Positions 2,858-11,726 of a DNA stretch of 11,938 bases are shown piece after piece. Made by a program: the position numbers and the translations under genes. Location: contig JABCSY010000116.1 in the NCBI GenBank assembly GCA_018238625.1, forward strand, positions 1-11,938, given 5' to 3'. The notes under the pieces are model-generated. The model was not told where the DNA came from, ran no database searches, and worked only from the letters and a program-made list of their open reading frames with translations. This DNA comes from Promethearchaeota archaeon (GTDB lineage Archaea > Asgardarchaeota > Lokiarchaeia > Sigyniarchaeales > SOKP01). Within the stretch, counting starts at the first letter, position 1. Each line of letters starts with the position of its first letter.

Positions 2858-3457
2858 ATGGTGGAGAATAAGAACCTACTGTTGGGAATCTGTGGAAGCC
2901 CCAGAAAACAAGGAACAGATTTTGCTGTTCAGTACGCACTAAAGTACGCTGCAGAAAAATTTAGTTTTGACACTGAGTATTGGACAGTGAGGGGAAAAGA
3001 AATCAAATTTTGTATACATTGCAATTATTGCGTTAGAGAAAAAAAAGGATGCATTCATAAAGATGACGTTCAAGACCTTTATCCTAAATTAGAAGAAGCT
3101 AAATTTTTATTATTCGGAACTCCTGTATTTCAAGGAAACCTTTCGGGGCAATTAAAAACAATATTAGATCGTTGTCGTGGATTAGTCGCTAAAAATCCGA
3201 ATGTATTTAAAGGAAAATATGGTACAGCTCTTGCAGTAGGCGGTGATCGAAGCGGAGGGCAAGAAATTGCGATAAGAAGCATTCTAGATTTCTACCAACA
3301 AAATCACGTGGTTTCCGTATCAGGTGGCGCATTCGGAGCGAATTTGGGCGCTTCATTATGGAGTAACGATAAGGGTAAGGAAGGAGTTCAAAACGATGAA
3401 GAAGGGTTAAGAACAATTAGAAAAGTTATAAAAAGATTAGCAGAGCTTAAAAAATAA
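2858..3457 (+). CDS. Iron-sulfur flavoprotein (Isf-like; NADPH-dependent FMN reductase / flavodoxin-like family)
   Basis: GSPRKQGT FMN loop, compact CX2CX2CX6C (CIHCNYCVREKKGC), GTPVF, LKTILDR, VGGDRSGGQE. Confidence 0.92.
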   Translation: MVENKNLLLGICGSPRKQGTDFAVQYALKYAAEKFSFDTEYWTVRGKEIKFCIHCNYCVREKKGCIHKDDVQDLYPKLEEAKFLLFGTPVFQGNLSGQLKTILDRCRGLVAKNPNVFKGKYGTALAVGGDRSGGQEIAIRSILDFYQQNHVVSVSGGAFGANLGASLWSNDKGKEGVQNDEEGLRTIRKVIKRLAELKK

Positions 3458-3504: not shown

Positions 3505-3801
3505 TTATTTAACTCCAAATAATTTCTTAGCTTCTTTTTCTCTAAGCCCAGAAATGCCCCAGAGTTCTTTGAACCAATATTTTCCATTCATTATTACAAC
3601 AGGCGTATTTACAATGCACCCATCGGCGTCACAGAAAGTTTTTAGAAAATTCTCGTCGTGTGTTAGCTGGTGAACGAATTCTTCGTCGTTTATATCTCGT
3701 TCAATGTATTTAACATCGTATTTTTTTAACCAATCAACTAATTCATGACACCTGGAACAGTCTTCTTTTGTAATAACAATTGGTATTTGCATTTTACTCA
3801 T
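3505..3801 (-). CDS. Glutaredoxin/NrdH-like thioredoxin-fold protein
   Basis: ITKEDCSRC active site, YIERDI strand, cis-Pro-type TPVVIMNGK. It carries an extra CDADGC insert. Confidence 0.82.
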   Translation of the reverse strand: MSKMQIPIVITKEDCSRCHELVDWLKKYDVKYIERDINDEEFVHQLTHDENFLKTFCDADGCIVNTPVVIMNGKYWFKELWGISGLREKEAKKLFGVK

Positions 3802-4459: not shown

Positions 4460-5503
4460 TTAAATTATTTGTTTCAGCAACCAGCGAATTGCTTCGATAA
4501 TTTTTTCGTTCTCGCTAAGAACATTTATGGAGAAATACTGCATAAGAAGTCCACACTCTGCTAATTCATCCATGTCAAAATTCTCGTAAATCAAATCGGG
4601 AGTAATTTCTTCTTTATCCTGAAATTTGTTGCCAATAATGAGTATAGGCATAAAATATTCCTTATCCAAACATCTGTTTAAGACTAATCGAAACATTTCG
4701 ATAGTCTCTTTGAACGAGTCTTTATTGGAAGCGTTAAATATTAAAATGAAGCCTTGAGCATTATCCAAACAATCTTCATATAACTTTACAATTTTTCCAT
4801 TTGTATCATTTTCAATACATTCATAAGTTAAGATTTCGATGTTATCGATTAAAAAGTCATAAATTTTATTGGCTAAATCTCTTTTCATACCGTTGTTCTT
4901 ATATTGAAGGAATTGCGTAACCTCTAAATTCTTTACGAAAGTGGTCTTTCCTGCATTTTCGGGACCAAAAATGTAAACTTTCTTTAAATCTTCTTTAGCT
5001 AATAAATGAGAAGTTATACTTATTTGCGGAGTCATTTTTTCAAGATAGCCGTTAAAAATGTTTAAGAAATTTTTTTTAAATTTTTTCGAAGCTAAACTCA
5101 GTGTATTTTTTTGATTTGTTCGATTTTTGTGACTGTGAAGAAGTTCTGTAAGGCCATCAAAATTTTTAAGCTCAGAAGCAAACATTTCGAGATCTGGAGT
5201 TTTAGACAGCAGATAATTGTAAACATCAGTAATTTCATCTTTGAAATAAGCAGCTCTAATTAAATATGTAATCATCAGCATTTCTTTTCCACCTCGAGCG
5301 TATTCTGAATCGATGTAAAAAATATGGTTTATCGTCTGAAACTTTCTGAAAGTAAACACAAAATTTCCCTCTTCATCAGAAAATTCCAGAATTCGCCCTA
5401 AATCAGGGTGTTCTTTAGTTTTTAACGTGGAATTACAATAAAGCGTATTTGGTCCGAGAATAGTATCAAAATACGACACGCAAAGGATGGAATCTTTAGA
5501 CAT
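4460..5503 (-). CDS. Longin/uDENN-like N-terminal domain fused to a divergent Ras-superfamily small GTPase domain
   Basis: N-terminal ILCVSYFDTILGP and HIFYIDSEYARGG motifs. C-terminal P-loop KVYIFGPENAGKTT (G180-T188), AQGFILIFNASNKDSF, PILIIGNKFQD (G4-like) and final helix IIEAIRWLL. Confidence 0.82.
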   Translation of the reverse strand: MSKDSILCVSYFDTILGPNTLYCNSTLKTKEHPDLGRILEFSDEEGNFVFTFRKFQTINHIFYIDSEYARGGKEMLMITYLIRAAYFKDEITDVYNYLLSKTPDLEMFASELKNFDGLTELLHSHKNRTNQKNTLSLASKKFKKNFLNIFNGYLEKMTPQISITSHLLAKEDLKKVYIFGPENAGKTTFVKNLEVTQFLQYKNNGMKRDLANKIYDFLIDNIEILTYECIENDTNGKIVKLYEDCLDNAQGFILIFNASNKDSFKETIEMFRLVLNRCLDKEYFMPILIIGNKFQDKEEITPDLIYENFDMDELAECGLLMQYFSINVLSENEKIIEAIRWLLKQII

Positions 5504-6181: not shown

Positions 6182-6499
6182 ATGTTCCCAGAATTTATAG
6201 AAAAACTTGCGCAAGAAGTTGATGGGGCAGACAATGCTCACGATGTAATGCTATTTACGCTATCAACTTGTATGTGGTGCAAGAAATGCAAGGCTCTTTT
6301 AAAAGACAAGAATGTGAAGTATCGATACGTCGATCTTGATAAAATCGATTCAGGCGAAAAAATAAAGCTATTAAAATACGTAAGAGAGAAATACAAACCA
6401 GACAGAATAGCCTATCCCTTTCTCGTATGCGACGATAAATTTGTTATTGGATACGATCCAAAGAAATACGAAGAATTATTGAAACCCGGAGGAAATTAA
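6182..6499 (+). CDS. Glutaredoxin/NrdH-like protein, probable partner of the adjacent FTR
   Basis: LFTLSTCMWCKKC, YRYVDLD, IAYPFLV (cis-Pro), VIGYD. Its stop lies 1 nt before the FTR start. Confidence 0.9.
   Translation: MFPEFIEKLAQEVDGADNAHDVMLFTLSTCMWCKKCKALLKDKNVKYRYVDLDKIDSGEKIKLLKYVREKYKPDRIAYPFLVCDDKFVIGYDPKKYEELLKPGGN
6488..6492 (+). promoter_or_regulatory. Ribosome-binding site GGAGG for the FTR gene
   Basis: GGAGG sits 8 nt before ATG 6501, inside the end of the glutaredoxin gene, suggesting translational coupling. Confidence 0.6.
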
Positions 6500-6500
6500 G

Positions 6501-6866
6501 ATGGACATGGAAACAAAAGAAGGAATGAAAGAGTACGTAAAGATTGTCAGTCAAAAAAATGATTGGATTTTAAATAAAGATCAAGTTACATTTGATAATT
6601 TAATCGATGGCTTAGTTGAAAATAAGAAAAGTCACGACTATCAATCTTGCCCCTGTCGTCTGGCTTCAGGTAATAGAGAGTTGGATAGAGATCTAATTTG
6701 CCCATGTGAATACGCTCCTAATGATGTGAAGGAATTTGGCGCTTGTTATTGCAACTTGTATCTACGCTCAGATTTTTACGAAACAATAAATGAAGAGTTT
6801 GTGGTCGTTCCGGAAAGGAGACCTCTTGAAAAAGAGAACGCCGTTTTAGAATACTTTAATAAATAA
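6501..6866 (+). CDS. Ferredoxin:thioredoxin reductase catalytic-subunit-like protein (FTR/FDR)
   Basis: Diagnostic SCPCRL, LICPC and GACYCNLY motifs plus VPERRP tail. It has CYC rather than the plant-type CHC and no C-terminal rubredoxin domain. Confidence 0.95.
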   Translation: MDMETKEGMKEYVKIVSQKNDWILNKDQVTFDNLIDGLVENKKSHDYQSCPCRLASGNRELDRDLICPCEYAPNDVKEFGACYCNLYLRSDFYETINEEFVVVPERRPLEKENAVLEYFNK

Positions 6867-6882
6867 ACTATACTAGTTTTAA

Positions 6883-6900
6883 CTTTTTTTCTTTCTTTTT
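6883..6900 (+). terminator. Oligo-T terminator candidate after FTR
   Basis: ctttttttctttcttttt begins about 17 nt after the stop. Confidence 0.55.
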
Positions 6901-6983
6901 GTGTTAAACATAGCGATTTATATTTAACAAATCAATTTTTTATAAATAAAATCCTTAAATAATTCGGGTTCTCTTTATACTAT

Positions 6984-7139
6984 ATGTTAAATAAAGAAAA
7001 AACGGATGAAGAATTAGAAGACGAATTAGATAAAGCCTTTAAAGAAAGCGAACCTAAAAGAGACAACTGCGGAACGGCGATTCCGGCAAGTAAAGAAGTA
7101 GGAATCCAAAGAACTGATGTGAAAGTTAAAAAAGAATAA
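6984..7139 (+). CDS. Small 51-aa charged protein with a single Cys (not in the ORF track)
   Basis: MLNKEKTDEELEDELDKAFKESEPKRDNCGTAIPASKEVGIQRTDVKVKKE*. It is purine-rich with GAA/AAA codon use like its neighbours, more GC-rich than the flanks, and has TATA-like elements upstream (TTTATAAATA 6939-6948; CTTAAATA 6954-6961). Confidence 0.68.
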   Translation: MLNKEKTDEELEDELDKAFKESEPKRDNCGTAIPASKEVGIQRTDVKVKKE

Positions 7140-7218
7140 TTCAACAGCAAAATACTCATCCAAAGCTTATAAACTTTAAACCACATTTTAAATAAAGATT
7201 CTCAATTTCAATTATTAG

Positions 7219-8211
7219 GTGAATACATTAAAAGAAAGAATTAAAGGGAGAAAGAATTTTCCCACCGAGGAAGTTGACCCCGATAATTATTTGAGCGATG
7301 ATGAAGTTAGAAATTTAACCGAAAACAAAGAGACCTTAAAATTTGTACAAGAAGATTACTACAAACTTTATAATTGCGTTCATTGTGGTGAATGCGACAC
7401 AGAAGAAGAGCGGCTTCTTTTAAAACAAAGATTTCTCGAAGATGGTAATAGCGTTGAAGGTCTTGCTGATATGATAGAATGTTTTCGCAATTATCGTACG
7501 CCATATCCTTCGAATAAAATGCGTATTAGAACGCCAGAAGGAATCCCTAAAGAATCTGACACTCTTTTTTATATGGGGTGTCTTTCGACAATACGAATTC
7601 CAAGATATACAGAACATTCACTCAAATATTTGCTAAAACAAAAAGTTGATTTTACAATCTTAGATAAGGAAATATGTTGTGGGTGGCCTTGGTTCGCGTC
7701 TGGTTGTTTTCAAGAGTTTGAAACTTGTAAAGAAGAAAACATAGAAATTTTTGAAAAATTTAAAACAGTTATTTGCTTATGTCCTGCTTGTTACTTTCTT
7801 TTCAATAAATATTACAAGCCTTCAATGAAATCAGAAGTAGAATTTAAATACATCTCAGAGTACTTAAAACCTTCTGACACCAAAAAGTCAGGAAAAGTAG
7901 GGGTGCAACACCTCTGTCAACTAATGAATCGCGGCACGAAGGGCATTGATAAATTGGTAAATAACACGTTAGAAAAAAGCGGATACGAAGTCGTAGACAT
8001 ACCTCACTGGTGTTGCGGTGGTGGTCTTGGTTATATGCATCGTACTGATGTCATTGACAAAATAGCACGCAAAAGATTGGGCGATTTTGACGAAGCAGGT
8101 GGCGATTATTGCACTACGTATTGTCCGAGCTGCTGGTGGGTCTTAGCGAGATATAGTAAACTATGCAAAATAAAACCTAAAGCTAAAGATGTATTCGAAT
8201 TACTACTATAA
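7219..8211 (+). CDS. Cysteine-rich CCG-domain Fe-S protein (HdrB/HdrD/GlpC-like), paralogue A
   Basis: CVHCGEC, then two complete CCG motifs: C121-X31-CCG-X32-CPAC and C233-X31-CCG-X34-CPSC. The GTG start is preceded by an in-frame TAG. Confidence 0.9.
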   Translation: MNTLKERIKGRKNFPTEEVDPDNYLSDDEVRNLTENKETLKFVQEDYYKLYNCVHCGECDTEEERLLLKQRFLEDGNSVEGLADMIECFRNYRTPYPSNKMRIRTPEGIPKESDTLFYMGCLSTIRIPRYTEHSLKYLLKQKVDFTILDKEICCGWPWFASGCFQEFETCKEENIEIFEKFKTVICLCPACYFLFNKYYKPSMKSEVEFKYISEYLKPSDTKKSGKVGVQHLCQLMNRGTKGIDKLVNNTLEKSGYEVVDIPHWCCGGGLGYMHRTDVIDKIARKRLGDFDEAGGDYCTTYCPSCWWVLARYSKLCKIKPKAKDVFELLL

Positions 8212-8220
8212 AATACTAAA

Positions 8221-9216
8221 ATGAATGAAGATTATAGTTGTCCCTGCAGAGACGTTGACCCAGATAATTTTATTACGAATGAAGAAGTAATAGAGTTATT
8301 AAAAACTAAGGATAGTTACAAATTCAAGCAAAAAGATTATTTTAGGGTGTATAATTGCGTTCATTGTGGCGCTTGCGGCACGCATTATGAGCGGTTTCTT
8401 TTAAAGCAGAAATTTTTAGAGGATGGAAATAAGATTGAGGGTTTGAGCGAACAAATTGAGACTCTAAAAAAGTTTGGAACTCCATTCAAACATAATAAAA
8501 GCAGAATTAAACCTTTAAAGGGTACTAACAAAAATAGTAAGACATTACTATACTTTGGTTGCTTTACTACCGTGAAAACGCCAAAATATGGCGAAAACAC
8601 CGCAAAATATCTTCTAAGTAAAAATATAGACTTTTGTATCTTAGACCAAGAAATTTGCTGTGGTTATCCTATCTTGTGTACGGGGGAAGTTAACACGTAT
8701 AACCTAATGGTTGACAGAAATAAGGAGCTGTTTAAAGAAAAAGGTTTTGAAAAAATTATAACCGTATGCCCAAGTTGTTATATGGTATTTAAAAAACATT
8801 ATAGCGATTTAGGTATTAAAATAGAATACTTTACAGAATATTTAACGCTTTCAGAAGAAAAAAAATCGGGAGATATAATATTTCAACACGCTTGTCCATT
8901 AAAGTATATAGAATTTCCGGGTATTGAAGAAAAACTCAAAAAAATATATGAGGATAGCGGTTATAAAGTTGTAAATGCACCCCATTATTGTTGTGGCGGT
9001 GGCGTTGGGCATCAATTAAGAGTAGATGTCGCTGAGATGATTGCGCGTAAAAGAATGGAAGATTTTAAAGAAATAGGGGATCAAATTTCAAAAATAAGAG
9101 AAAACTCAAGTTTTATTACAACCTATTGTCCCGACGCTTTTTGGATTTTAAAATTCTATGGGAAAAAACAAAAAATAAAATGCCAACTTAAAGATCCTTG
9201 CGACCTATTGATGTAA
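8221..9216 (+). CDS. Cysteine-rich CCG-domain Fe-S protein (HdrB/HdrD/GlpC-like), paralogue B
   Basis: N-terminal CPC, then CVHCGAC. The first CCG motif is complete (FGC...ICCG...CPSC); the second ends in CPDA. It aligns with paralogue A over its full length. Confidence 0.9.
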   Translation: MNEDYSCPCRDVDPDNFITNEEVIELLKTKDSYKFKQKDYFRVYNCVHCGACGTHYERFLLKQKFLEDGNKIEGLSEQIETLKKFGTPFKHNKSRIKPLKGTNKNSKTLLYFGCFTTVKTPKYGENTAKYLLSKNIDFCILDQEICCGYPILCTGEVNTYNLMVDRNKELFKEKGFEKIITVCPSCYMVFKKHYSDLGIKIEYFTEYLTLSEEKKSGDIIFQHACPLKYIEFPGIEEKLKKIYEDSGYKVVNAPHYCCGGGVGHQLRVDVAEMIARKRMEDFKEIGDQISKIRENSSFITTYCPDAFWILKFYGKKQKIKCQLKDPCDLLM

Positions 9217-9379
9217 AAATTATACTTCCTTAATTGAAAAAACAAATTTGAATTCTTATAAAGGATCTTTTTAAAAGTACTTATCGTAAAATCGATAATT
9301 ATTAAGAATCTTTATAATTTAAACGAATAAAAATTTTAAGAGTAATTTCAAATAATCACAATAGATTGAAAATATAGTT

Positions 9380-9384
9380 GGTGA
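9380..9384 (+). promoter_or_regulatory. Archaeal ribosome-binding site GGTGA
   Basis: 9 nt before ATG 9394. Confidence 0.6.
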
Positions 9385-9393
9385 TTTTATTTT

Positions 9394-10086
9394 ATGTTGT
9401 TTTCCCAGAATGAACTTGATAATATTAAGAGAGAAATGACAAAATTAAAAGATACTATATCGTTAAAATTGTTTACTGATTTCAAAACTCAAGAGGATGG
9501 AAGTAAACTTAGAAAATGTATGGCTTGTGAAGGTACTTACGAACTATTAAAAACATTAGAAGATGTATCAGGTGGAAAATTAAGTATAGAAGAATATTCA
9601 ACTGAAGAAAACGAGGAAGACTCAAAGAAATATGATATTGTCAGAATTCCAGCTATTTTATTTGTTGACGAAGAAGAAAAGGTAGTTATTAAGTACTCAG
9701 CGACTCCTGCCGGAGCAGAGCTAGCGCCGTTTCTTAAAAGCCTTCAATACTTCTCTGGAGTGAGTCCATACTATAAAGATCAAATTGTATCCCACCTTAA
9801 GAAAATTCCTAAGTCAAAAATGAAAATGTTTATCACTAAAACTTGTCCCTATTGTCCTGCTACAGTCCCAGTGGCGAATCTATTCTCAATAGTTTCGAAA
9901 GGAAAGGTTTCTGTAGAAATAATCGATGTCGACGCCAATCCTGATATTGCTATGAAATATCAAGTACAAGGAGTACCACACACTATTATTAACGATAAAG
10001 ATCACATTTATGGCATGTTTACTCCGCAAGAATTATTGGAGAAACTAACTAAAGGTGAACGAGATTTAGGGGGTATGTATAGTTAA
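9394..10086 (+). CDS. Protein disulfide oxidoreductase (PDO / AhpF-N-like, two thioredoxin folds), paralogue A
   Basis: CMAC and CPYC sites, RIPAILF and GVPHTII cis-Pro motifs, PAGAELAPF linker; 230 aa. Confidence 0.92.
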   Translation: MLFSQNELDNIKREMTKLKDTISLKLFTDFKTQEDGSKLRKCMACEGTYELLKTLEDVSGGKLSIEEYSTEENEEDSKKYDIVRIPAILFVDEEEKVVIKYSATPAGAELAPFLKSLQYFSGVSPYYKDQIVSHLKKIPKSKMKMFITKTCPYCPATVPVANLFSIVSKGKVSVEIIDVDANPDIAMKYQVQGVPHTIINDKDHIYGMFTPQELLEKLTKGERDLGGMYS

Positions 10087-10096
10087 AGATTTAATA

Positions 10097-10102
10097 AGGT
10101 GA
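10097..10102 (+). promoter_or_regulatory. Archaeal ribosome-binding site AGGTGA
   Basis: 9 nt before ATG 10112. Confidence 0.65.
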
Positions 10103-10111
10103 TATTAGAAA

Positions 10112-10795
10112 ATGTCTCAAGACGATAAATATAAAGAAATTATTCAAAAAGAAATGGCTAAATTAACTAAGCCCGCTAAACTTAAAGTTTTTACGAGCAA
10201 AAAAAGTCAGCCTGACGGGAGTTTTATTAGAGAGTGTCAAGAATGCAACACATTTATGACGCTTTTAAAAGTGTATGAAGCGAACTCTAACGGTATGCTG
10301 ACAATCGAAGAATTGTCGATTTACGATGACCCTGAATTCGCCAAAAAATACGACATAGAACGCGTTCCTACTACTCTATTTATTGACGACGATGGTCGCG
10401 AAATAATTCGTTATCTAGCTGCCCCTCAAGGAGGAGAGATCCAACCGTTTATTCAAGCGTTGTTCGTTTTCGCAGGTGCTCCGAATTATTACGAAGCGAC
10501 AATAAAACAGAACTTGGATCGCATTCCTCCTTCAACGATTAGAGTAATGTTAACTAACGCGTGTCCCTATTGTCCTAGCGTTGCTACAGTGGTAAATTTG
10601 TTCGCTTTGGCTTCAGATGGAAAGATTCGAACGATTATAGTTGACATCATGACCAATCCAGACATAGGTCAATATTATGACGCTTCTGGAGTTCCGTATA
10701 CGATCATTAACGATAATAAGACTTTAGTTGGGATGGTTGGTGCAAACGAAATATTTAAAGCATTAATAGGAGGAAACATCAATGTTCAATATTGA
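10112..10795 (+). CDS. Protein disulfide oxidoreductase (PDO / AhpF-N-like), paralogue B
   Basis: CQEC and CPYC sites, RVPTTLF and GVPYTII, PQGGEIQPF linker; colinear with paralogue A. Confidence 0.92.
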   Translation: MSQDDKYKEIIQKEMAKLTKPAKLKVFTSKKSQPDGSFIRECQECNTFMTLLKVYEANSNGMLTIEELSIYDDPEFAKKYDIERVPTTLFIDDDGREIIRYLAAPQGGEIQPFIQALFVFAGAPNYYEATIKQNLDRIPPSTIRVMLTNACPYCPSVATVVNLFALASDGKIRTIIVDIMTNPDIGQYYDASGVPYTIINDNKTLVGMVGANEIFKALIGGNINVQY

Positions 10796-11726
10796 TATGG
10801 AAGGCGTTGATTTTGAAAAAACTTACGACCTAATTGTTTTAGGTGGTGGGCCAACTGCGATTGGATGTGCCATCTATGCCGCCAGGTTCGCGTTGAACGT
10901 TTTAATTGTAGGGAAAACATTTGGTGGATTAATTGCTACGACTCATCTTGTTGAAAATTATCCTGGAATCGCCTCAACAAGTGGTCAAGGGTTAATGGAT
11001 ATGTTTAAAGAACACATGAATTCCTTGAGCATTCCTTACATATCAGACGAGATAAGAAGCATAGAAAAAGCGGACGATCACTTTATTTTGCACTCCTTTT
11101 TTCAAAAATTTAAAGCTTATACGGTTTGCATCGCTACTGGATCTGAAAGGAAGAAGTTAGGGATCCCTGGCGAAGAGGAGTTTGCTGGAAGAGGCGTTTC
11201 TTATTGTGCTACTTGCGATGGTCCGTTTTATAAAGATAAAGTCGTAATTGTGGTTGGAGGAAGTGATTCTGCCGCTAAGGAAGCGTTGTTTTTATCGCAG
11301 AATGTGAAAAAGGTTTATATCGTTTATCGAGGAGAAGAAATCCGAGCGGAACCGATAAATAAAAAACGAGTTTACGAAAACGAAAAAATTGAAATTATAT
11401 ACAAAACTAACATCGTAGAAATTAAAGGAGACACTTCTGTTAAGTCAGTTATATTCGACAACGGAAAGGAATTTGATATAGATGGCGTATTTATCGAAGT
11501 GGGTTCTATTCCCAATTCAGATTTAGCCAAACGCATAAGCGTTAAAACAGATGAGAAAGACGAAATAATTATCAATAGAAAATCTGAGACGAATATACCC
11601 GGTATTTTCGCCGCTGGAGACGTTGCAGACGCCCCGTTTAAGCAAGCAATTACCGGAGTAGCGGAAGGGGTTATAGCGGCGTATTCAGCTTTCGATTATG
11701 TCAAAGAAATGAATATCGAATATTAA
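10782..11726 (+). CDS. trxB: Thioredoxin reductase (low-molecular-weight type)
   Basis: IVLGGGP, VENYPG, IATGS, GRGVSYCATCDG active site, VVGGSDSA, TNIPGIFAAGD, QAITGVAEG. The start is either 10782 (GGAGG at 10769-10773; 14-nt overlap with PDO B) or ATG 10797. Confidence 0.93.
   Translation: MFNIDMEGVDFEKTYDLIVLGGGPTAIGCAIYAARFALNVLIVGKTFGGLIATTHLVENYPGIASTSGQGLMDMFKEHMNSLSIPYISDEIRSIEKADDHFILHSFFQKFKAYTVCIATGSERKKLGIPGEEEFAGRGVSYCATCDGPFYKDKVVIVVGGSDSAAKEALFLSQNVKKVYIVYRGEEIRAEPINKKRVYENEKIEIIYKTNIVEIKGDTSVKSVIFDNGKEFDIDGVFIEVGSIPNSDLAKRISVKTDEKDEIIINRKSETNIPGIFAAGDVADAPFKQAITGVAEGVIAAYSAFDYVKEMNIEY

Follow-up and report, generated by a model that had tools for sequence, protein, structure and literature searches.

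Do three chemically distinct types of putative disulfide reductase, encoded in one run of co-oriented genes, form a single electron relay, or are they separate systems that share a locus? The question is raised by a contig of a Loki-type Asgard archaeon (here called the window: the whole 11,938-nt contig C113 of a 4.29-Mb genome with a completeness of 98%). At positions 6182 to 11726 it encodes a glutaredoxin (Grx), a ferredoxin:thioredoxin reductase (FTR) homolog, the product of a small open reading frame (sORF), two proteins with CCG domains (CCG-A and CCG-B), two protein disulfide oxidoreductases (PDO1 and PDO2), and a thioredoxin reductase (TrxR). Eukaryotes have no closer known relatives than the Asgard archaea, and at stake is how such anaerobes handle oxygen and sulfide. 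Loki-type lineages keep two textbook archaeal disulfide systems side by side, one driven by ferredoxin (ferredoxin:disulfide reductase, FDR, with Grx) and one by a flavoenzyme (TrxR with PDO). To these the locus adds an uncharacterized, lineage-restricted HdrD-like protein and a lineage-restricted single-cysteine microprotein. An original prediction, made from the DNA letters, had read the eight genes as a candidate dual-input system coupling the ferredoxin and NAD(P)H pools. All eight open reading frames (ORFs) are present:

6182 to 6499, + strand: glutaredoxin-like redoxin, Grx (PF00462, E = 6e-11, 42.8 bits against a cut-off of 22.9)
6501 to 6866, + strand: homolog of the FTR catalytic subunit, of the single-subunit FDR type (FeThRed_B, PF02943, E = 7e-19, 68.3 bits against a cut-off of 22)
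6984 to 7139, + strand: sORF, a 51-aa acidic protein with a single invariant Cys (no Pfam or NCBIfam family)
7219 to 8211, + strand: CCG-A, predicted soluble HdrD-like iron-sulfur protein with a GTG start (two PF02754 domains, E = 4e-20)
8221 to 9216, + strand: CCG-B, an apparently old paralog of CCG-A (two PF02754 domains, E = 1e-21)
9217 to 9393, no strand: AT-rich gap of 177 nt between the CCG pair and the PDO-TrxR unit, an insertion-prone junction in relatives
9394 to 10086, + strand: PDO1, two-domain protein disulfide oxidoreductase (TIGR02187, 155.3 bits; Thioredoxin_3)
10112 to 10795, + strand: PDO2, paralog of PDO1 (TIGR02187, 133.5 bits), overlapping the TrxR start by 14 nt
10782 to 11726, + strand: low-molecular-weight thioredoxin reductase, TrxR, with a CATC motif (TIGR01292, 318.5 bits)

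Based on spacing, the genes fall into four tight units: Grx-FTR, sORF alone, CCG-A-CCG-B, and PDO1-PDO2-TrxR. Distances within units are 1 nt (Grx/FTR), 9 nt (CCG-A/CCG-B), 25 nt (PDO1/PDO2), and -14 nt (PDO2/TrxR), versus 117 nt (FTR/sORF), 79 nt (sORF/CCG-A), and 177 nt (CCG-B/PDO1) between them. ORFs, domains, and motifs confirmed much of what had been predicted, namely, the eight co-oriented genes, the three chemically distinct reductase types, the gap at 9217 to 9393, and five redoxin CxxC sites (in Grx, PDO1, and PDO2), to which TrxR adds its CATC. We favor, with a probability of roughly 55%, the reading that this is a conserved thiol-redox/oxygen-stress island of one Loki-type Asgard family and that it consists of separable units, not one relay. 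A common physiological theme, and perhaps a regulator, would unite them; nothing points to direct electron exchange between the units.

The arrangement in relatives carries this reading. A CCG-A query returned 80 related loci at 59 to 98% identity; since CCG-A was the probe, all locus counts are conditional on its presence, and since related genomes are kin, the counts are not independent. Grx, FTR, and sORF lie upstream of CCG-A in 56 of the 60 loci with at least 4 kb of upstream sequence. Downstream, PDO1 is found in 50 and TrxR in 49 of the 54 loci with at least 6.5 kb, and CCG-B adjoins CCG-A in 35 of the 73 loci with flanking sequence. The neighborhood conservation expected by the original prediction is therefore real, and the clustering, which recurs in dozens of genomes, is beyond chance in that sense. 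The rest of the 12-kb window is equally collinear in the family, including unrelated genes for an Arf-like GTPase and a HEAT protein, so order within the family cannot itself tell functional linkage from inheritance.

The junctions between the units are often interrupted. In 20 of 70 loci, 600 nt or more separate the sORF from CCG-A, and the last CCG gene is at least 1 kb from PDO1 in 46 of 63. Among the recurrent inserted genes, two for unknown proteins (26 and 22 loci) and one for a PAS histidine kinase (18 loci) lie on the opposite strand, and one for a MOT1-type transporter (34 loci) is co-oriented; the remainder include genes for Ras-like GTPases (11 loci), a rhodopsin (2 loci), and GH38. 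The MOT1-type (molybdate/sulfate-permease-like) gene stands between CCG-A and PDO1 at L061:10880-12040 and in 33 further loci, often with the opposite-strand PAS kinase, and tends to hold the place of CCG-B (L040 and L045). The rhodopsin gene is bacteriorhodopsin-like and lies between FTR and sORF at L064:7034-7639 and in a second locus of the same cluster.

The units also occur apart. We sampled 301 genomes of the phylum, in which CCG-A orthologs were found in 53 of the 68 genomes of the window's family (f1) and in 11 of the 21 genomes of f24, a family in another class; all other matches were HdrD-like and about 30% identical. PDO1-type genes (E <= 1e-40) were present in 57 of 68 f1 genomes and 0 of 232 elsewhere. 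In the genus g4, all four sampled genomes encode the sORF, and neither CCG-A nor PDO1 was detected in any of the four. Grx-FTR-sORF is followed in the g4 loci L117, L118, and L119 by rubrerythrin and a desulfoferrodoxin-type gene. No CCG gene is present in this g4 setting; TusA-DsrE is found some 6 to 9 kb from the island and is followed farther out by cysteine desulfurase-IscU in L118. A ferritin gene sits between FTR and sORF in two of the three g4 loci.

In f24, the CCG-A ortholog (61 to 63% identity) directly follows a gene for a metallo-beta-lactamase-rhodanese fusion in L093, L094, L095, L110, L111, and L112, and it precedes a Sulf_transp transporter in L093. The setting is an island of rubrerythrins, a desulfoferrodoxin-type gene, ferritin, and an FAD oxidoreductase, with no PDO or TrxR gene nearby. 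Grx-FTR is about 7 kb upstream of CCG-A in L093, L094, and L111 and is missing from that position in L095; beside it in L093 and L094 is a 37%-identical homolog of the oxidoreductase encoded at 1 to 1104 of the window. An acyl-CoA dehydrogenase (ACAD) gene lies just upstream of the rhodanese-CCG pair, and the CCG-A neighbors in loci L096 to L098 are unrelated. No homolog of the f24 lactamase-rhodanese fusion was found in the source genome at E <= 1e-8.

A third arrangement is that of an f4-type homolog (43% identity), which in L099 (and in L103, of the same sequence) is adjacent to a Trx-like gene and oriented divergently to TusA-DsrE-cysteine desulfurase-IscU. In L107 and L108, a Trx-like gene and Grx-FTR are both found no more than about 5 kb from the f4-type CCG gene; an FAD oxidoreductase and an FMN reductase are encoded in L108 as well, the latter a homolog of the one at 2858 to 3457 of the window. 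An ACAD-like gene occurs near loci L105 to L107. CCG-family genes and Grx-FTR thus come within 8 kb of one another in three lineages of differing arrangement, namely, f1, part of f24, and the f4-type loci L107 and L108. Recurring neighbors of this kind (Grx-FTR, genes for oxygen stress, and sulfur carriers) suggest a role in the physiology of thiols, sulfur, or oxygen stress without singling out a partner or substrate.

Considered by itself, each flanking unit resembles a system already described. The Grx carries CMWC at residue 30, overlapping a CKKC motif, and its nearest solved chains are the archaeal glutaredoxins 5cax (E = 3e-13), which we take to be methanoredoxin although the PDB name returned was only "Glutaredoxin," and 3nzn (E = 7e-13). 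It also matches residues 6 to 76 of 7pwe, the chain that is the nearest solved relative of the FTR (E = 5e-27, followed by 4tpu at E = 2e-21), indicating that 7pwe is a natural Grx-FTR fusion. The FTR has the six-cysteine pattern CPC...CPC...CYC, with C50, C52, C67, C69, C82, and C84 invariant in 27 sequences, and the third motif is CYC in all three proteins. We rejected the classical heterodimeric cyanobacterial/plant FTR as a model because that motif is CYC, not CHC, and because no match to the variable-chain family was found (Pfam) among the 16 window proteins.

The Grx-FTR unit therefore matches, as far as its residues can tell, a known kind, the Methanosarcina FDR, which has the same single-subunit catalytic domain and is likewise paired with a glutaredoxin-like neighbor, the window's CxWC Grx being closest to 5cax and 3nzn. 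It differs in that the two domains joined on one chain in 7pwe are encoded here by separate genes and in that the window FTR is without the rubredoxin domain of 4tpu. By homology, reduced ferredoxin would reduce the FTR active-site disulfide and, through it, the CMWC Grx, which is likely the substrate of the FTR that starts 1 nt past its stop codon. Excerpts of a published account (PMC7278568) describe FDR as a [4Fe-4S] ferredoxin:disulfide reductase and methanoredoxin as a glutaredoxin-like protein dependent on coenzyme M (CoM). ComA (for CoM) and BshC (for bacillithiol) were not found in the 98%-complete genome, making a CoM-type thiol partner and CoM or bacillithiol disulfide substrates unlikely.

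The sORF is a real gene and a new one: its product, a 51-aa protein with a single Cys, is restricted to the family, and the gene keeps company with Grx-FTR. Related loci yielded 72 distinct orthologs of 51 to 54 aa, with an acidic N-terminal half, the motif D-x-C-G-x3-P-x3-E-x-G-x-Q-R, and C29, G30, P34, E38, G40, Q42, and R43 invariant. Profile searches found it in 61 of the 68 genomes of the window's family, covering all nine sampled genera, and in 0 of 232 outside. It is single-copy in the source genome, and in 65 of 70 loci no more than 300 nt separate it from FTR. The predicted fold is of low confidence (mean pLDDT, 65.6), with one helix at residues 8 to 28 and a disordered tail, and atlas matches were to unnamed 52-aa clusters only. 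No fused forms were seen among the matches, the only longer ones being two of 96 to 97 aa that probably have miscalled starts. A complex prediction for FTR and the sORF protein scored 0.02, which gives no verdict and weighs neither for nor against interaction; a role as small partner or substrate would be a guess. Selenocysteine was considered and dismissed, since the in-frame TGA flagged in one relative is a stop codon and the Cys is intact.

CCG-A and CCG-B are each of about 330 aa and are 46% identical to one another. CCG-A combines an N-terminal helical domain containing one CxxCxxC with two complete CCG domains. In the alignment, the N-terminal C53, C56, and C59 are invariant and are followed by no invariant fourth Cys; in the CCG domains, C121, C153, C154, C188, C191, C233, C265, C266, and C302 are invariant, and C305 is conserved in at least 90%. 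The AlphaFold2 model (mean pLDDT, 88.5) is matched best by mycobacterial EtfD, 9ojn (TMq, 0.70), then by a LutA model, and then by HdrB, which is also matched by profile at E = 5e-11. Neither the domain scan nor the model revealed a membrane or quinone-site domain.

The two proteins appear from their sequences to form a new, narrow, Asgard-restricted family of soluble HdrD-like proteins. Only 10 of 1.84 billion cluster representatives match CCG-A at E <= 1e-30, and the nearest relatives outside are HdrD-like proteins of about 30% identity. No relative of 579 to 2000 aa was found at that threshold; one relative of 528 aa has polyferredoxin domains ahead of its CCG part. A quick tree (SH-aLRT) resolved three clades, one f4-type, one of CCG-B (well supported), and one joining the CCG-A of f1 and f24, suggesting that the A/B duplication is old. 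A literature search returned no paper on the gene cluster or on the CCG-A family. The CCG-A ortholog of one genome of the family (G171:C41:30484-31460) matches in two pieces and contains an in-frame TAG, possibly a pseudogene or an assembly error. Near alignment residues 302 to 305, the second CCG motif reads CPDA(F/Y) in the CCG-B of the window and of L006, versus CPSC in CCG-A and CPDC in the CCG-B of L009; a second-cluster Cys has thus been lost in that sub-lineage.

CCG-A shares with HdrB/HdrD (5odc and 8rvu) the two CCG domains, ten Cys, and the profile and fold match, and it shares with HdrD-like proteins in general an N-terminal helical domain of the Fe-S type. HdrD and HdrC have two full four-Cys [4Fe-4S] motifs; CCG-A has a single CxxCxxC where two complete motifs would be expected. 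We rejected a canonical heterodisulfide reductase (Hdr) because scores against the HdrB equivalog models are far below the cut-offs (TIGR03288, 37.5 bits versus 345; NF041780, 25.5 bits versus 450) and partner genes are missing: as had been predicted, no HdrA, HdrC, HdrE, or Mvh family matched any of the 16 window proteins (Pfam and NCBIfam). CCG-A probably works like an HdrD-type protein, yet it does not belong to the canonical Hdr.

EtfD of Mycobacterium smegmatis is the best structural match over the whole chain, and the LutA model matches over the CCG pair. Both differ from CCG-A in sequence (15 to 16% identity), the 742-residue EtfD chain has an extra domain to which CCG-A has no counterpart, and ETF, LutB, and LutC genes are not among the neighbors here. 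A further likeness is to the sulfur-oxidizing Hdr-like (sHdr) complexes, since in the f24 and f4-type relatives CCG-domain genes likewise have rhodanese, TusA, and DsrE genes as neighbors. Those complexes work with sulfurtransferases, whereas this window has no rhodanese, TusA, or DsrE gene (Pfam scan); genes for HdrA, HdrC, and a lipoate-binding protein were not seen beside the CCG-A family, which would instead provide a single soluble HdrD-like protein. By analogy with HdrB and from its genomic context, CCG-A may act as a reductase driven by a low-potential donor, electrons entering at the N-terminal three-Cys cluster site and a disulfide or persulfide, the presumed substrate, being reduced at the paired CCG clusters. 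CCG-B accompanies it in about half of the relatives. A substrate of this kind outside methanogenesis had been predicted, and the rhodanese and TusA/DsrE neighbors in other lineages fit it; the identity of the substrate is still a conjecture.

PDO1 (motifs CMAC and CPYC) and PDO2 (CQEC and CPYC) both have TIGR02187 as their best NCBIfam model and score below its cut-off of 185; TrxR likewise scores under the TIGR01292 cut-off of 343.45 (Pyr_redox_2, E = 2e-45). The nearest solved chain to TrxR is Sulfolobus TrxB-3, 3f8p (E = 2e-71). By sequence, PDO1-PDO2-TrxR matches the known Sulfolobus solfataricus/Pyrococcus kind of flavin-driven protein disulfide system, sharing a PDO with two CxxC sites that adjoins a low-molecular-weight TrxR with CxxC. 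Both flanking pairings, Grx-FTR and PDO-TrxR, are thus of known types, as had been proposed. The differences are the tandem PDO paralogs (among the related loci with TrxR, there are two copies in 34 and a third in 21), the scores just under the cut-offs, and the pyridine-nucleotide site. Electrons would pass by homology from a pyridine nucleotide to TrxR and then to PDO, and reduction of PDO by NTR in Sulfolobus and Pyrococcus is mentioned in excerpts of PMC7278568.

Several observations weigh against an island of separable units or against the roles we assign within it. Gene order is kept down to about 60% identity, possibly reflecting a functional tie. In the 68 f1 genomes, CCG-A and PDO1 occur together in 52 and are both missing from 10, with PDO1 alone in 5 and CCG-A alone in 1; this strong co-occurrence, together with the kept order, could indicate such a tie. 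Adjacency, joint loss, assembly gaps, and kinship would be expected to produce the same pattern, too; in five of the ten genomes with neither gene, the sORF is missing as well, and there the whole island may have been lost or left unassembled. The transcription units, drawn from gene spacing and the insertions, are putative. The window's CCG-B is without the last Cys of its second CCG motif (CPDAF). CCG domains are also found in proteins that are not disulfide reductases, and with EtfD as the best and LutA as the next fold match, the reductase role of CCG-A and CCG-B is putative. TrxR of the E. coli type has an HRRxxxR motif; the window's TrxR reads YRGEEIR at that position, so its pyridine-nucleotide donor is also putative.

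The same evidence bears on other explanations. In an integrated dual-input relay, the shared redoxins Grx, PDO1, and PDO2 would be fed by ferredoxin, via FTR and the CCG pair, and by NAD(P)H, via TrxR, and the CCG pair would reduce one redoxin or a common small disulfide. The co-orientation of all eight genes, the upstream and downstream order kept in most loci, and the near-absence of genomes discordant for CCG-A and PDO1 (6 of 68) are what such a relay would produce. We nevertheless consider it unlikely, since the blocks are split by unrelated and often opposite-strand genes, Grx-FTR-sORF occurs in g4 where CCG-A and PDO1 were not found, CCG-A occurs in f24 with no PDO or TrxR nearby whereas PDO1-type genes were not detected outside the family, and the collinearity extends to unrelated genes. 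For these reasons, the coupling of the ferredoxin and NAD(P)H pools in one system, as suggested in the original prediction, is not supported. Alternatively, the CCG proteins may handle sulfane sulfur as ferredoxin-driven persulfide/polysulfide reductases whose cargo is carried on rhodanese- or TusA/DsrE-type proteins, for sulfide detoxification or for sulfide supply to Fe-S repair in oxygen stress. This possibility, which we hold to be doubtful, draws on the six f24 loci with the lactamase-rhodanese fusion, the transporter next in L093, and the f4-type gene that is divergent from the sulfur-carrier genes and beside a Trx-like gene in L099. Sulfur oxidizers, too, are known to have Hdr-like complexes that act together with TusA, DsrE, and rhodanese, according to excerpts of two accounts (10.1101/2023.12.18.572138; PMC4175335). 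It is weakened by the window itself, which has no such sulfurtransferase gene, by the failure to find the fusion homolog in the source genome, by the unrelated neighbors in L096 to L098, and by g4, where TusA-DsrE without any CCG gene suggests that the adjacency may be incidental.

The CCG pair might also be no thiol reductase at all and instead be an electron-transfer or dehydrogenase protein of the LutA/GlpC/EtfD kind, located here through inherited order without functional meaning. EtfD and LutA come ahead of HdrB in the fold comparison, ACAD or ACAD-like genes occur near the f24 and f4-type homologs, the region is collinear as a whole in the family, and with 43 CCG-domain matches in the source genome, CCG genes are common here. 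We judge this improbable, given that LutB/C, GlcD-type oxidase, GlpA/B, and ETF genes do not recur beside the CCG family, that CCG-A has no detected membrane or quinone-site domain, and that thiol, sulfur, or oxygen-stress neighbors recur in three rearranged lineages. The original prediction had itself named a lactate/glycolate dehydrogenase or canonical Hdr subunits as the partners that would speak against it. None of lactate/glycolate dehydrogenase, LutB/C, HdrA/C/E, or Mvh was found in the 28 of 29 recurrent neighbor clusters scanned (46 singleton ORFs lay outside the scan), and because the CCG gene is, in most related loci, syntenic with both Grx-FTR and PDO-TrxR, that objection does not arise. 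Overall, the original prediction is partly supported.

For the island of separable units, the broader meaning depends on the CCG proteins. If they are soluble, ferredoxin-driven persulfide/disulfide reductases, Hdr-type chemistry reaches general thiol homeostasis beyond methanogens and sulfur oxidizers; if they are not, the cluster is an ordinary stress island. In an extended version, which strikes us as a long shot, CCG-A/B would represent a third class of cytoplasmic thiol reductase, specific to Asgard archaea. This stand-alone, soluble HdrD-like enzyme would draw low-potential electrons from ferredoxin and use paired non-cubane clusters to reduce persulfides and disulfides of proteins or small molecules that arise under oxygen or sulfide stress, with the sORF protein as a dedicated thiol/persulfide carrier or adaptor in that network.

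Possible boundaries within the island were also inspected. A terminator had been proposed at about position 6890, and two T-runs indeed follow the FTR stop codon:

6884 to 6890 (T7) and 6896 to 6900 (T5), + strand: candidate archaeal oligo-T termination signal

Oligo-T is an archaeal termination signal, and the proposal stands to that extent, with function putative; no hairpin was found near 6890 in a sigma-70 promoter/hairpin scan, which is poorly suited to archaea. Rfam gave no match within the window. Contigs from three sequencing runs, whose RNA or DNA nature is doubtful, contain a relative roughly 90 to 99% alike that covers parts of the window; no transcript boundaries were readable from these runs, and one RNA run gave no coverage. 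A 25-nt direct repeat (6973 to 6997 and 7174 to 7198; 84% identity), with one copy overlapping the sORF start and the other upstream of CCG-A, was rejected as a shared operator: only 1 of the 80 related loci has it, and loose matches to it number 22 across the genome. Since relatives do not conserve it, the repeat probably arose by local accident.

Upstream of the eight genes, the window encodes further proteins with redox or regulatory domains:

1 to 1104, - strand: FAD/NAD(P)H oxidoreductase with a rubredoxin-reductase-type C-terminal domain (Pyr_redox_2, E = 3e-56; Rubredoxin_C), truncated at the contig end
1173 to 2060, + strand: two-cluster ferredoxin domain (Fer4 families, residues 30 to 85) fused to an AF_0155 Rossmann-like domain
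2110 to 2763, - strand: HTH_10 DNA-binding protein (PF04967, E = 1e-12), conserved in position in related loci
2858 to 3457, + strand: FMN reductase-type flavoprotein (PF03358, E = 1e-28), conserved in related loci
3505 to 3801, - strand: second glutaredoxin-like protein (PF00462, E = 8e-6), conserved in related loci
4460 to 5503, - strand: Arf/Ras-like small GTPase with an N-terminal extension of ~170 aa, in or beside the redox island

The FAD oxidoreductase, an upstream member of the island, is kept in that place in related loci. The ferredoxin-domain protein at 1173 to 2060 (295 aa) is a possible electron carrier of the island, in which it is conserved throughout the family; its C-terminal half, rich in Cys, comes closest to PF27217 clusters (score, 0.94). 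The HTH_10 protein is a candidate regulator. Extended Arf/Ras-like GTPases like that of the window are also encoded at L036:4995-6032 and L009:9988-11055, and in relatives they recur as insertions between the CCG and PDO genes.

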